A DNA stretch of 64,000 nucleotides from Alphaproteobacteria bacterium (GTDB taxonomy: Bacteria; Pseudomonadota; Alphaproteobacteria; UBA828). Under the pieces are notes generated by a model. The model worked only from the letters and a program-made list of their open reading frames with translations, did no database searches and was not told where the DNA came from. The translations under genes and the position numbers were made by a program. This document shows, piece by piece, positions 19,994-53,034 of this stretch. The stretch lies in assembly GCA_965221125.1 (NCBI GenBank), contig CBDCRW010000007.1:512001-576000 (forward strand). The letters are read 5' to 3'. Positions within the stretch are counted from its first letter, which is position 1, and each line of letters begins with the position of its first letter.

Positions 19994-20130
19994 TGCCAGT
20001 ATCTTTCGGGCATCCCGCTGAGTCGGGTCGCCCGCTGAATAGAACAGCCTGATTCCGGGTCACGGTAGCTCCTTGGCCCCAGGTGAATAGGCGGGGAGTT
20101 TCTCTTAAAATTTCCTGAGAGATACTGGCA
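19994..20130 (+). ncRNA. Unidentified structured RNA / leader, copy 1
   Basis: 17-bp closing stem (19994-20010 with 20114-20130, two G-U pairs), CCCG/CGGG hairpin, CCCGCU/GGCGGG stem, GAAUAGAACA/GAAUA internal loop, GG-UAGCU-CC apical loop. Same architecture at 52019-52144. Confidence 0.75.
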
Positions 20131-49422: not shown

Positions 49423-49573
49423 CGCGCCTTCGGCGGTCCTTTGATTATGCGCGCCTTCGGCGGCCTTTCGATGCCGCGCGCCTTCGGCGGCCTTTCGATG
49501 CCGCGCGCCTTCGGCGCGACCGAATTCCGCGCGCCTGGCGGCGCGACCGATTCCGCGCGCCTGCCGGCGCGAC
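49423..49573. repeat. Tandem array of about six degenerate 25-28-bp units (CGCGCCTTCGGCG core)
   Basis: GCGCGCCTTCGGCGGCCTTTCGATGCC repeated, drifting to GCGCGCCTGGCGGCGCGACCGATTCC. Confidence 0.85.
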
Positions 49574-49699
49574 TGTTGCGGGGCTTTTCGGAACCTCGTC
49601 AGCCGTTCTGCCCTATCTCACCTTGTCTCGGCTTGTCTCGGCTTATCTCGGAATTTTGGCCAAAAAAATGGGAATTACATACCTGACTTGACAGCCCCG

Positions 49700-49825
49700 C
49701 GCTGACCTCTCCCGCCCAAACCGACCTATATGCGCTGGGCGGGAGTGGGGGTTACCTCACCACAGCTCGTCACGTCATGCCACACCATGCCTTGACGCTG
49801 ACCTCTCCCGTCCACACCGCCCTAT
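49700..49825. repeat. Subterminal ~29-bp direct repeat x2
   Basis: GCTGACCTCTCCCGCCCAAACCGACCTAT and GCTGACCTCTCCCGTCCACACCGCCCTAT, each shortly after CTTGAC. Confidence 0.8.
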
Positions 49826-49885
49826 CAGCCTAGGGTGCGCTCGCTCTAATCCCCACCCTGTGGGCCGTAATCCGCATTTGCGGTC

Positions 49886-49914
49886 TTGACCCGAAATTCC
49901 TGTCACCGTATAAA
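49886..49914 (+). promoter_or_regulatory. Sigma70-like promoter inside the IS
   Basis: TTGACC-N17-TATAAA. Confidence 0.65.
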
Positions 49915-49918
49915 CGGC

Positions 49919-50133
49919 CCGGCGGGCCGCTCTGGTCCGTCAGTGTTTCGGATCCGATTTCAGGGAGAGTCATTCGAGCTCGATTCAGAATGGTGATCGG
50001 CGCGGTCGTCGCTCCTGCCCTTTTGGAGGGGCGTTCACCGCATCAACCCGCCGGTCTGGGCTAAGTCGGTTGGACCCGACCGCCCGTTTCCATCCCGCGC
50101 CGCCCTGCCACAGAGGGCGGCGCAACTCCTTTG
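49919..50133 (+). ncRNA. Candidate structured RNA (or small-peptide mRNA) between convergent promoters
   Basis: CCGGCGGG (49919-49926) pairs with CCCGCCGG (50047-50054). Further hairpins follow, including a 10-bp GCGCCGCCCT/AGGGCGGCGC stem before CTCCTTTGT. No long ORF. Confidence 0.4.
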
Positions 50134-50159
50134 TATAGAGGGATTCTCGCTCCCGTCAA
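50132..50159 (-). promoter_or_regulatory. Sigma70-like antisense promoter inside the IS
   Basis: Minus strand TTGACG-N16-TATACA. Confidence 0.5.
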
Positions 50160-50642
50160 CCGGCATCCCCGCCCGTTCTTAACCCTTTGCTTTTACGTTA
50201 TTTTCGTAGTTTTGGGTTCCTTCTGCCGCTGACCTTATCGCTCTCGCGTATATGACTTTGACGCGCCTCCGCCTCGCGGTGCCCTCGACTCCATCCATCC
50301 CCGCCGTGCCGGACGTGCCCGCGCTGCCCACGGTTCCCGAAATCTCCGCAGAGGCCGCTGAGCGCCCCGTCAGCGCCGCTGCCGATTCTCCCACCCCTCG
50401 CCCTTCAGCCGTCGAGCGCGCCTCTCCACCCGGTTTTCGTCGCGTCCGCGTCCGCGACTAGGCCCCGCGTCCCCATTCTGCCGTCCCCCTGACGGTCCGC
50501 AAATTTCTTTGCGGACCATCTGCAACTTTCCCCGTCCTGATCATTATATGCCTGGGTGCAGTCGGCTCTCCCTGCGCTCGCCCCTCCGCTCTCCCCGCGC
50601 GATTACCGCCAAACTTCTCAGCGGTGGCAGCGAATCCGGGGC

Positions 50643-51614
50643 ATGCCCCAAGCTGCACCCGGCAAGTTCTATCGTCAGGGCATCTCCTGGCCCGAACTGT
50701 TCGCCCGCTTCCCCGACGACGCGGCCGCCGAGGCGTGGTTCGAGGAGCAACGTTGGGGTACTCCTGGTCAGCCGTCCTACTGCCCGCTTTGTGGTGACAC
50801 GGAGCGCCTCCGCCCCACCCCCAACCGCCGCCCGCTCCCCTACTGGTGTGGCGCTTGTCGGTCGTACTTCTCCGTCCGCACCAACACCGTCATGCACCGT
50901 TCCAAGCTCCCGCTCCAGAAATGGGTCATCGCCATCTACCTCTGGGCCACCTCGCTCAAGGGCGTGTCCTCGATGAAGCTCCACCGCGACCTCGGCATTA
51001 CGCAGAAGTCCGCGTGGTTCCTCGCCCAGCGGCTGCGTGCCGCTTGGTCCGCCCCTGCCGACGCGCCGCCCCCGCCGCCCTTGTTCGCCGGTCCCGTGGA
51101 GGTTGACGAGACCTACCTCGGCGGCAAAGAGCGGAACAAACACGCCAAGAAGAAGTTGCGCGCCGGGCGGGGTGCCGTCGGCAAGACCCCCGTTGTTGGT
51201 GCGCTCGATCGCACCGCCAACCAGATCGCTCTCGCCGTGCTGCCCTCGACCGACCGTCCCACCCTGCACGGCTTTATCGAGCAGCACGTGCAACCGGGTG
51301 CCCAAGTGTATACCGACGAGGCCAGCGCCTATCAGCGCATGCCGTTCCCGCACGACGCTGTGAACCACTCGGTCGGCGAGTACGTCCGCGACCAAGCGCA
51401 CACCAACGGCATCGAGTCCTTCTGGGCGACCTTGAAGCGCGCCTACGCCGGCACCTACCACCACATCTCCCCCGAGCACCTCCACCGCTACGTCGGCGAG
51501 TTCGCCGCCCGCCACAACCTCCGCACCCAAGATACCGAGGCTATGATGGCCGAGGCGGTGGCGCAGATGATCGGCAAGCGCCTCACCTACAAAGAACTGA
51601 TCGGGAAGAACTGA
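50643..51614 (+). CDS. IS1595-family transposase
   Basis: Zinc ribbon CPLC...CGAC, FSVRT.T.M..S..PL.KW, KG.SS..L.R.L.I.QKSAW, VEVDETY, YTDE, HTNGIESFW..LKR, KRLTY.EL. Confidence 0.96.
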   Translation: MPQAAPGKFYRQGISWPELFARFPDDAAAEAWFEEQRWGTPGQPSYCPLCGDTERLRPTPNRRPLPYWCGACRSYFSVRTNTVMHRSKLPLQKWVIAIYLWATSLKGVSSMKLHRDLGITQKSAWFLAQRLRAAWSAPADAPPPPPLFAGPVEVDETYLGGKERNKHAKKKLRAGRGAVGKTPVVGALDRTANQIALAVLPSTDRPTLHGFIEQHVQPGAQVYTDEASAYQRMPFPHDAVNHSVGEYVRDQAHTNGIESFWATLKRAYAGTYHHISPEHLHRYVGEFAARHNLRTQDTEAMMAEAVAQMIGKRLTYKELIGKN

Positions 51615-51635
51615 CTTTATGCGAAGATTATTCCT

Positions 51636-51662
51636 TGTGGAAAACTTGTATTGTGTGGATAA
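51636..51662. promoter_or_regulatory. Two DnaA-box-like 9-mers downstream of the transposase
   Basis: TGTGGAAAA (one mismatch) and TGTGGATAA (perfect reverse complement of TTATCCACA), 18 bp apart, each followed by CTTG. Confidence 0.55.
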
Positions 51663-51752
51663 CTTGAATCGACTATCGTTGGGTTTTTAACGGTTTGTTA
51701 GACTCGAGTTTGGTCGAAGGTGTCGGTGGGGCCGCGAGGCTCGTCCGGTGTT

Positions 51753-51843
51753 TGGCGGAGGAGGTGGGATTCGAACCCACGGTACGGCACAGCCGTACAC
51801 CGGTTGCCTAGACCGGCGCCTTCGACCGCTCAGCCACTCCTCC
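51753..51843 (-). tRNA. tRNA with a serine-type body and atypical anticodon loop (AGG anticodon, C37)
   Basis: GGAGGAG/CUCCUCC acceptor stem, G73, encoded CCA, D-loop GG, CCGGU-CUAGGCA-ACCGG anticodon arm, 7-bp variable arm GUACGGC/GCCGUAC, GUGGG-UUCGAAU-CCCAC T arm. 91 nt. Confidence 0.93.
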
Positions 51844-51855
51844 GCGACCTTAGAC

Positions 51856-51885
51856 ACCATAACTTGATCGCGTGGCGGTCGTCAA
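51856..51885 (-). promoter_or_regulatory. Sigma70-like promoter of the tRNA gene
   Basis: Minus strand TTGACG-N18-TATGGT, ending 12 nt before tRNA G1. Confidence 0.6.
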
Positions 51886-51982
51886 CGCAACAGGTCGCCG
51901 GATACGCCAGATGTAGCAAGCCGGCGCCGGCTTGCTACATCCCGCCTGCCTCGTGAGGCGCATCAGTTCCAGCATCTAGCGA

Positions 51983-52011
51983 TTGCGCCCGCATTGTGCC
52001 TCCGTTACGCT
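51983..52011 (+). promoter_or_regulatory. Sigma70-like promoter for structured RNA copy 2
   Basis: TTGCGC-N17-TACGCT. Predicted start (~52019) coincides with the first base of the closing stem. Confidence 0.55.
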
Positions 52012-52018
52012 CTCCCTC

Positions 52019-52144
52019 GTCAATGACACGCGGAGCCCGCACGTCGGGTCGCCCGCCGAATACAACAGCCGCACGACCCGGCACGGGGTAGCTCCCCGCG
52101 CTTGGCGAATAGGCGGGACTTCACGCTATCCGTGTGTCGTTGAC
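52019..52144 (+). ncRNA. Unidentified structured RNA / leader, copy 2
   Basis: 16-bp closing stem (52019-52034 with 52129-52144, two G-U pairs), CCCG/CGGG hairpin, CCCGCC/GGCGGG stem, GAAUACAACA/GAAUA internal loop, GG-UAGCU-CC apical loop. Confidence 0.75.
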
Positions 52145-52213
52145 ACGGCCCGGCACCCGCCGGGCCGCGAGCCGCCCTATATCGGTCGGTTCCAGCGGGC
52201 AGCGGAGGGCGAC

Positions 52214-52588
52214 ATGTGGAAAGCCATTACTCTCAGTCTAGTTCTGGCCTTGAGTTCGGCTGCGCCGACCTGGGCGCAGGATTCTGGCAACGAATTCGTC
52301 ATCACTGTGCCAACAGACTTGGATACGCGCTTGTTCTTTGTGGCGGAGACGCTATCTCCCCATAGGGTGCAAGTGGGGTCGCCGTACAATTATGGTTCGA
52401 TGTACGAAGGTGAGCGGCAACGGCTGGTTCAATTCGCTCGCTGGGGGTGTCAACTCTATGGTCGGGATCGTCTTGCTTATGTCGGAATACAAACCAATGA
52501 TCAACGTTGTGACGAAATGGGTGCGGCCGCCGCCGAGCGCGATCCTCATTGCTACCACATCCACACCTTCGTGTGCGTTGAGCGGTGA
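52214..52588 (+). CDS. Hypothetical secreted cysteine-containing protein (IS passenger)
   Basis: MWKAITLSLVLALSSAAPTWA-QD signal peptide, GGAGGG RBS, four Cys, lower GC, 124 aa. Confidence 0.75.
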   Translation: MWKAITLSLVLALSSAAPTWAQDSGNEFVITVPTDLDTRLFFVAETLSPHRVQVGSPYNYGSMYEGERQRLVQFARWGCQLYGRDRLAYVGIQTNDQRCDEMGAAAAERDPHCYHIHTFVCVER

Positions 52589-52771
52589 GTCGAGTCTCTC
52601 GGCTCGACCTGATGCGCGCCAGTGTTGATGGCGGCGCGTCTAGGAGTTGAACCTAAAACGCCCTGGGGGACGTTCGCTCGGATTGTCAATCCGGCCTCCG
52701 GACCGCCGGAGATGGCGCGCCGCCATCTCCGGGAACCCACAATGTAATTCGCAGATCGCTCTGCTTCGCGC

Positions 52772-52784
52772 TAAGTGATTGATT
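52772..52784 (-). promoter_or_regulatory. IHF-like site next to the right IS end
   Basis: Minus strand AATCAATCACTTA fits WATCAA-N4-TTR, 5 bp inside the IRR. Confidence 0.5.
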
Positions 52785-52861
52785 CCACGTGTCAAGTCAG
52801 GTATATAAATCCCAAAAAAATGTCCTGCCAAACCGAGATACGCCGCATGGGAGCGCCGCAT

Positions 52862-52876
52862 GTTCTCTGTGTGTTC
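52862..52876. promoter_or_regulatory. Alphaproteobacterial LexA box
   Basis: GTTC-TCTGTGT-GTTC, an exact GTTC-N7-GTTC, intergenic. Confidence 0.55.
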
Positions 52877-53034
52877 CATGCGGGGAGGTCGCGGATATGG
52901 TCGTCTAAGGCGGCATCGCGGATGCTCACATCGCGGATGCGCCGGCTGCGTTTCGCCCGCCGCCCGACTATCCTGAACGCCCGCCGGAACGGTTCCGCCC
53001 GCGCCGCACAACCCCACAGCCGGAGGCCAGACGC

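Follow-up and report, generated by a model that had tools for sequence, protein, structure and literature searches.

A serine-type tRNA gene with a proline anticodon inside an IS1595-family transposon

The element and its cargo

In the 64-kb window (the whole stretch of DNA analysed here, 64,000 nucleotides from an alphaproteobacterium) ARAGORN detects a single tRNA gene, at 51753-51843 on the reverse strand, which it labels tRNA-Pro(agg); a gene with a serine-type body is in this way annotated under the name of tRNA-Pro. The gene lies inside a 3,144-bp element (49670-52813) that is delimited by 24-nt inverted repeats and flanked by an 8-bp target duplication (Table 1). The corresponding empty site is preserved in the genome of a sister species (G007), where both flanks are adjacent and a single CAAAAAAAT is present. 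Taken together, the inverted repeats, the duplication and the empty site show that the 3,144-bp unit transposed to its present site with the AGG tRNA inside. The carrier has a transposase of the DDE_Tnp_IS1595 type (Pfam PF12762), terminal inverted repeats and an 8-bp duplication, which places it in the IS1595 family, and the guess contained in the original prediction, that the gene might be borne by an insertion sequence, has thus proved right. Both the 8-bp duplication and the existence of passenger-carrying subgroups are reportedly traits of this family.

Table 1. Features of the tRNA-bearing transposon and its flanks (positions refer to the window), followed by tRNA genes whose anticodon does not fit the body at related IS1595 loci of the genus
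Feature	Position	Strand	Evidence
Left copy of the target-site duplication, 8 bp, AAAAAAAT	49662..49669		Sequence; empty site in sister genome
Left terminal inverted repeat, GGGAATTACATACCTGACTTGACA	49670..49693	+	Repeat pair 92% complementary
IS1595/ISXO2-like DDE transposase, likely start ATG at 50643	50556..51614	+	Pfam PF12762, E 1.3e-43
91-nt 7/5 class II Ser-type tRNA, anticodon AGG (51809-51807), C37, G73, encoded CCA	51753..51843	-	ARAGORN, Rfam, sequence
Promoter-like site TTGACG-18-TATGGT, 12 nt upstream of the tRNA 5' end	51856..51885	-	Consensus match only
Perfect 32-nt palindrome between tRNA promoter and leader	51910..51941		Inverted-repeat pair
Conserved structured leader RNA, weak sRNA-Xcc1-like match	52021..52164	+	Rfam RF02221, 33.7 bits (below the gathering score of 53)
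Small cargo ORF, 124 aa, N-terminal signal-peptide-like segment (putative gene)	52214..52588	+	ORF
8/4 allo-tRNA-like gene, loop UUGACAA, anticodon GAC, G73, encoded CCA	52629..52722	-	Rfam RF01852, 52.9 bits; pairing
Right terminal inverted repeat	52790..52813	-	Pairs with left repeat
Right copy of the target-site duplication, AAAAAAAT	52814..52821		Matches left copy
Ser-type 89-nt tRNA, anticodon UUA (ochre type), all Ser determinants	L251:2698-2786 (G008)		61.8 bits
Class II 88-nt tRNA, G73, anticodon GUU	Genus IS1595 locus, inside mapped repeats		55.8 bits
77-nt tRNA, anticodon UCC	Genus IS1595 locus, inside perfect repeats		60.3 bits
GAC tRNA, extended acceptor stem	Genus IS1595 locus, inside mapped repeats		42 bits
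tRNA pair: Cys-like body with 8-nt loop, and GAC tRNA	G004		43.6 and 52.5 bits
76-nt class I Cys-like tRNA, anticodon GGA, U73	G000 C5:3581-3656 = C7:85974-86049		38.9 bits

The 3,144-bp element is present in one copy in its source genome and was not found in the 20 sister genomes searched. Its AGG tRNA and transposase genes are convergent. A sponge-metagenome contig fuses position 51614 straight to 52007, and for this reason the tRNA-bearing interval, from the transposase gene to the leader RNA, is a variable slot. The stretch of ~860 nt from the left repeat to the transposase gene (49694-50555) holds no convincing open reading frame and has no counterpart in the related elements and metagenome contigs compared. 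Just left of the insertion site, at 49423-49575, tandem 27-nt and 26-nt repeats (CGCGCCTTCGGCGG...) are found.

The second tRNA-type gene of the element lies 790 nt from the AGG tRNA and shows the geometry of an allo-tRNA (8/4; the 6-bp D stem carries a tetraloop). It has an 8-position acceptor stem (including one C·A), a 4-bp T stem, a 6-bp anticodon stem with a bulge, and a long variable arm. The tRNA-Sec model of Rfam (RF01852) scores better here than the general tRNA model; because ordinary tRNA-Ser genes also reach 51-52 bits with it in a whole-genome search, this score is not specific, and the 8/4 reading rests on the base pairing. The cloverleaf is also the minimum-energy fold of this gene (z -3.3), which ARAGORN misses. 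Marine and sponge metagenome contigs contain sequences ~95% identical to it, in which the changes are limited to the variable loop and the anticodon-stem bulge, with none listed in the anticodon loop.

The RNA at 52021-52164 has many relatives (75-87% identity; nhmmer E 6e-39), and from 14 aligned copies 31 pairs are predicted, of which six show compensatory changes. RNAs of this type, 130-140 nt in length, also occur at ~20022-20095 of the window and at a series of other loci (L018-L032). Each genome of the genus has many of them, and they often precede small ORFs, at a distance of 0.4-1.7 kb downstream of an IS1595 transposase. The RNA looks like an uncatalogued leader or a mobile RNA module. 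The 124-aa ORF that follows it here differs from the transposase gene in GC3 (0.58 versus 0.85); it matched no Pfam family, and its Atlas scores are all below 0.9.

The original prediction described an intact tRNA-Ser body, and this description is confirmed by ARAGORN, by Rfam (RF00005, 50.7 bits against a gathering score of 29, E 6.6e-8 in the window) and by the sequence itself: the gene at 51753-51843 is a real and intact serine-type tRNA gene with a proline anticodon. The acceptor stem is GGAGGAG/CUCCUCC (including G1-C72, G2-C71 and A3-U70), the D stem has 3 bp plus G13·A22 (a pattern typical of tRNA-Ser), the anticodon stem is CCGGU/ACCGG, the variable arm has a 7-bp stem with a 3-nt loop, and the canonical T arm is GUGGG-UUCGAAU-CCCAC. 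This fold is taken from covariance models and not from minimum-energy folding, which for the AGG tRNA alone (z -2.5) does not give the D and variable arms of the cloverleaf. In an alignment (A1) that takes in housekeeping tRNA-Ser genes, 94.9% of cells are paired as compared with 78.2% in shuffles. The predicted promoter of its own is present as a promoter-like site at a suitable distance from the gene; one sigma-70-like site was found in 49600-52900, with 0.8 ± 1.0 expected.

The anticodon loop, CUAGGCA, occupies positions 51811-51805 (C32 U33 A34 G35 G36 C37 A38). Its bases had been singled out for a check in raw reads, and read-derived Logan contigs (run X1, over 50981-51782 and 51754-51939) showed 0 differences, none within the gene, in a comparison that is not fully independent, as runs X1-X4 represent one sample that is possibly the source of the assembly. 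The loop is unusual at two positions, as had been claimed. The only other tRNA in the genome with A34 is tRNA-Arg(ACG). Position 37 is a purine in nearly all of the 54 seven-nt loops called by ARAGORN in the genome (A in 41 and G in 12, in a count that includes false positives of the program), and C occurs in the AGG tRNA alone; all three tRNA-Pro genes of the native complement (GGG, UGG and CGG) have G37.

Amino-acid identity and relatives of the gene

The four nearest matches of the AGG tRNA in its own genome are all tRNA-Ser (identity 0.82, 0.82, 0.79 and 0.73). The proposal that tRNA-Ser(UGA) is the closest of them holds for the anticodon arm, where the stems are the same and the loops differ at 3 of 7 bases, but not for the full length, over which tRNA-Ser(CGA) and tRNA-Ser(GCU) reach 82% and tRNA-Ser(UGA) 79%. 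The bacterial serine determinants listed by Giege and Eriani (PMC9976931, Table 1) comprise G73, C72, G2-C71, R4-Y69, C11-G24, a large variable region and G30-C40, and the AGG tRNA has the full set (with G4-C69 for R4-Y69). Among the bacterial proline determinants of the same table (A73, G72, G35, G36 and G37), G35 and G36 are present, while A73, G72 and G37 are replaced by G73, C72 and C37. The anticodon is not that of a serine isoacceptor (NGA or GCU), but SerRS does not need one: serine identity is anticodon-independent, as the original prediction had stated, and a yeast tRNA-Ser with a proline anticodon is still serylated and mistranslates (PMC9976931). The genome has one match to the SerRS N-domain; this search revealed no SerRS paralogue or dedicated synthetase in the genome, and the element contains no synthetase gene. 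Given the complete serine set and a T stem identical to that of the host tRNA-Ser genes, processing of the AGG tRNA, retention of its CCA, serylation and delivery by EF-Tu would be the default expectation, in agreement with the charging proposed at the outset.

A pattern search of 44 genomes of the family (3 mismatches allowed) returned 26 places, which include 24 housekeeping tRNA-Ser(GCU) genes and two aberrant ones, namely the AGG gene and a gene in a sister genome (G006) with the loop UUCCGAG, the anticodon CCG and A73. Of the 84 body positions 6 differ between these two, and of the 7 loop positions 5 (Fisher p 1.8e-4), corresponding to a divergence of 7% in the body (93% identical) and 71% in the loop. 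The stem changes in the G006 gene keep the pairing (A6-U67 to G6-C67, U12·G to C12-G, and G7-C66 to G7·U66), which indicates that the tRNA fold is under selection; a random decay of stems among homologues, envisaged as a possible outcome in the original prediction, is not seen in this one close homologue. The homology is confined to a ~150-nt cassette extending from the -10 region to ~45 nt beyond the 3' end, and both copies have the encoded CCA and the promoter-like site (-10 region). The G006 gene is located ~87 nt inside an IS1595-like end and beside a Mu gp27-like ORF; an adjoining fragment reads as an IS4-type transposase.

In metagenomes, 70 tRNAs with the same anticodon stem were obtained among the matches listed (81 in 80 loci), and all 70 have canonical Ser loops (36 CUUGAAA, 28 UUGCUAA, 5 CUCGAAA and 1 UUUGAAA), with no further copy of the AGG or CCG type among them. 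Two patterns gave 0 matches to such copies in viral contigs, and 21 plasmid records gave matches to ordinary tRNA-Ser only, none covering 80% of the query. Elsewhere in the genome (G000 C3:534997-535084, L005:1489-1576), a gene resembling tRNA-Ser(CGA), but with the 6-nt loop CUCGAA and an A7·C66 acceptor mismatch, directly follows a fragment of an IS66-family transposase and looks like decay.

Relatives of the transposase (36-68% identity overall) are present in 17 of the 21 genomes of the genus. At 6 of 72 transposase loci scanned in the genus we found tRNAs, confirmed by Rfam, with an anticodon that disagrees with the body, three of them inside mapped inverted repeats (Table 1). The inverted repeats of the elements at L251 and L248 were not found, and the tRNAs there are candidate cargo. 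The relative orientation of tRNA and transposase varies among the copies. For example, the UUA tRNA at L251 is convergent with its IS1595 transposase, 215 nt past the stop, whereas the GGA tRNA of G000 (78% like the native tRNA-Cys) is divergent and forms part of a repeat of at least 6.8 kb, of which two contigs carry 100% identical copies. Overall, tRNAs with a mismatch of body and anticodon appear to travel on several IS1595 transposons of the genus. Two calls made by ARAGORN at other loci (L073, 95 nt, and L262) were dropped for want of confirmation by Rfam, and an ordinary tRNA-Gln (L291) was rejected as cargo, being located 34 nt outside the inverted repeat. At another locus (L208), a tRNA-Pro with the anticodon CGG lies 676 nt from a transposase fragment. 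Several IS1595 transposase copies of the genus have a single in-frame TAG, TAA or TGA.

Ten IS-linked loops can be compared, from nine distinct tRNA genes (the siblings and the AGG tRNA) and the neighbouring allo-tRNA-like gene. U33 and a length of 7 nt are each found in nine of them, the exception on both counts being the 8-nt loop of L248, and position 37 is a purine in eight. The loops thus vary in anticodon, yet mostly stay decoding-shaped. The original prediction had set a conserved loop among homologues (a decoding role) against a hypervariable one (a role independent of the anticodon), and the answer is divided: the G006 gene combines a largely changed loop with a conserved body, yet U33 is almost always kept.

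Across phyla, 45 loci with transposases 36-63% identical were compared, of which ~20 have similar ends, 2.1-6.8 kb apart, that enclose varied cargo. A tRNA lies inside the ends at one of the 45, in a Nitrospinota MAG (a 76-nt class I tRNA with the anticodon GGA and U73, 69.4 bits), and a 400-genome sample of the class yielded 27 loci, spread over 16 other genomes, with a cargo tRNA at none of them. In the literature searched we found no paper on tRNA cargo in the IS1595 family, although the supplements of PMC5389517 may hold relevant lists.

Decoding and alternative explanations

The explanation that we favor, with a probability of about 0.4, is that the AGG tRNA, charged with serine and encoded on a transposon, acts as a weak CCU-to-Ser missense suppressor and is one of a mobile set of tRNAs with swapped anticodons. 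Its body would derive from the tRNA-Ser of the lineage, and the gene would be a working one, carried as cargo of the IS1595-family transposon. The single SerRS of the host would charge the tRNA with serine and EF-Tu would deliver it to the ribosome, where the AGG anticodon would pair with CCU, a proline codon that is rare in the genome (2.9 per 1000 codons; 5% of the Pro codons), and more weakly with CCC, so that serine is inserted. Bacterial TadA is specific for the loop of tRNA-Arg(ACG), and m1G37 guards the reading frame at Pro codons. A34 of the AGG tRNA is probably unmodified and C37 lacks the m1G37 of a true tRNA-Pro, and because of both features decoding would be inefficient and perhaps frameshift-prone. 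The strongest partner of an unmodified A34 is U, while pairing is modest with C and weak with G and A (PMC11066159). Poor decoding and the rarity of CCU would keep the cost tolerable. The AGG tRNA would then belong to a set of missense or nonsense suppressor types that IS1595 elements move within the genus. Its expression and serylation, its use by the ribosome and a benefit of any kind to host or element are what we infer here.

Several observations speak against a suppressor. C37 suggests a poor or disabled decoder. The codons targeted by the sibling tRNAs are abundant (CGG 23.6, AAC 18.5 and GUC 34.1 per 1000), and efficient insertion of serine at them should be very costly. The A73 of the only close homologue, the G006 gene, would weaken the serine reading for that copy. 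Irregular tRNAs that are charged but unused in translation (PMC5389517) and the rarity of tRNA cargo outside the genus point the same way. A variant in which the element recodes its own gene was rejected: the four CCT codons of the transposase gene (6, 10, 70 and 167) do not fall on conserved Ser positions (homologues have mostly P or G at 70 and 167, and S in 3 sequences each), so the transposase does not depend on a reading of CCU as serine.

The same facts bear on an alternative that we consider unlikely but serious, according to which the product is a tRNA-folded and perhaps charged RNA that does not decode, its role requiring the tRNA body only. It might act as a regulatory RNA or a decoy, directed at enzymes that bind tRNA or at toxins that cleave it, as a non-ribosomal seryl donor, or as a module for the processing or stability of the IS transcript. 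A conserved body with a freely changing loop is what such a role would predict, C37 is unfit for a codon starting with C, the anticodons of the siblings fit very common codons, and read-through of the convergent tRNA gene would be antisense to the transposase. There are also parallels among irregular tRNAs, some of which are charged but unused in translation (allo-tRNA(UAU) types are inactive), and for which regulatory non-coding roles and links with transposons and toxin-antitoxin systems have been proposed (Mukai et al., PMC5389517). On the other hand, a role of this kind would not require the U33 and the 7-nt size kept by nine of the ten IS-linked loops, nor the purine 37 kept by eight, and the orientation relative to the transposase is inconsistent among the copies. 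Furthermore, no RNA partner was found for the AGG loop. A T-box-like or antisense partner was rejected, as the anticodon arm has no non-self complement in four elements other than 7-8-mers expected by chance, and no leader positions co-vary with the anticodon across six IS copies.

Another explanation, to which we attach a still lower probability, takes the gene for a functionless hitch-hiker: a tRNA-Ser of the host lineage would have been captured by the IS, only copies with a spoiled anticodon (in this case together with C37) would be tolerated, and the gene would now be decaying. The anomalous C37 fits this account, and so do the single-copy status of the element and its absence from the 20 sister genomes, the rarity of tRNA cargo outside the genus, and the decay-like copy beside the IS66 transposase fragment elsewhere in the genome. 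All five stems, however, are intact, the differences from the G006 gene are compensatory or pair-preserving and concentrated in the loop (71% as against 7% in the body), and both copies have retained the CCA and the promoter-like site. Moreover, a captive tRNA-Ser with a serine anticodon would be harmless, which leaves the replacement of the loop without an obvious reason.

Charging with proline is very improbable. A ProRS reading G35 and G36, which are among the bacterial proline determinants (PMC9976931, Table 1), would turn the gene into an extra and harmless tRNA-Pro for CCU, and correct decoding would remove any toxicity; yet the gene lacks A73, G72 and G37 alike, it has a class II variable arm and the full serine set, and the genome already has tRNA-Pro genes with the anticodons GGG, UGG and CGG. 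The absence of those three proline determinants was also part of the case for serine made above. Integrases have sublocation preferences within tRNA genes, including anticodon-loop regions. A role at the DNA level based on this, for example as a portable integrase attachment site whose 7-bp loop is exchanged by recombination, is the least credible of all, since, for all the swapping of loops between identical stems, the variable slot indicated by the sponge-metagenome contig and the short ~150-nt cassette shared with G006, there is no adjacent integrase or integrated element and the sibling loops have no common core.

The suppressor reading may be extended to the family of elements as a whole. 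In this broader form, which we regard as speculative and rather unlikely, IS1595 transposons would serve as vehicles for a diversifying, translation-active pool of identity-swapped tRNAs, with bodies of the Ser type, Cys-like and others, with missense or stop anticodons and in some cases with allo-tRNA geometry, so that a jumping gene would alter the reading of a single codon in the cell that it enters. The targets of the AGG and UUA tRNAs would be codons that are rare in a high-GC host and commoner in foreign DNA, and if such a pool exists, these tRNAs could harm invading genes more than host genes.

Comparison with known systems

To our knowledge, natural tRNAs that deliberately misread the code come from very few systems, and we know of a canonical tRNA-Ser body with a proline anticodon so far only as a laboratory construct. 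This combination is now found in nature, on a transposon that has moved and beside an allo-tRNA-like gene. If the tRNAs are active, horizontal transfer of a 3-kb element can alter the meaning of a codon, which would bear on the origin of genetic-code changes, on what mobile DNA costs in fitness and on annotation; such genes would also offer natural, host-tolerated suppressor scaffolds.

The carrier resembles the passenger-bearing members of the IS1595 family in its DDE_Tnp_IS1595 transposase, short terminal inverted repeats, 8-bp duplication and variable cargo. It differs from them in what it carries, namely a pair of tRNA-type genes together with a structured leader and a small ORF.

Of the precedents named in the original prediction, the allo-tRNAs and "polycistrons of irregular tRNAs" (Mukai et al. 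2017, PMC5389517) turned out to be the closer, one allo-tRNA-like gene being located in the very same element. They likewise combine a Ser-type body, a long variable arm and G73 or U73 with many non-Ser anticodons, and a function in missense or nonsense suppression, or as regulatory RNAs, has been proposed for them; they are linked to transposon-related genes and to toxin-antitoxin loci. The action that we favor for the AGG tRNA corresponds to the missense-suppressor reading of allo-tRNAs. The AGG tRNA has a 7/5 structure and the 3-bp D stem of an ordinary tRNA-Ser, in contrast to the 8/4 or 9/3 structure and the long D stem with a tetraloop, and by this geometry it is not an allo-tRNA itself; irregular tRNAs with a 7/5 structure are nevertheless mentioned in the same paper. 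IS1595 does not appear in the text of that paper as available, whose supplements may list similar genes.

The other precedent, the Streptomyces tRNAProA, is a loose one, as body and synthetase differ. The tRNAProX group (tRNAProA, ProN and ProT) and the associated ProRSx of Streptomyces and Kitasatospora (PMC11415595) also represent a natural bacterial mismatch of body and anticodon, with A34 in all of them, and tRNAProX causes mistranslation when expressed in E. coli (PMC11415595). The direction, however, is opposite, a Pro body being combined with Ala, Asn or Thr anticodons. Moreover, tRNAProX has A33, A15-A48 and a dedicated synthetase (PMC11415595), as opposed to the Ser body, the U33 and the lack of an element-borne synthetase in the case of the AGG tRNA. 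Nor is tRNAProX described as transposon cargo: the string "transpos" is absent from the available text of the 2024 review (PMC11415595).

The engineered tRNA-Ser(UGG) of yeast and flies (PMC6827378; PMC9976931) shares with the AGG tRNA a Ser body and a proline anticodon; it is serylated and inserts serine at Pro codons, and its toxicity is relieved only when second-site changes weaken the tRNA (PMC6827378). It differs in being man-made and eukaryotic and in having a UGG anticodon and a normal position 37. Overall, the AGG tRNA is the natural counterpart of this construct.
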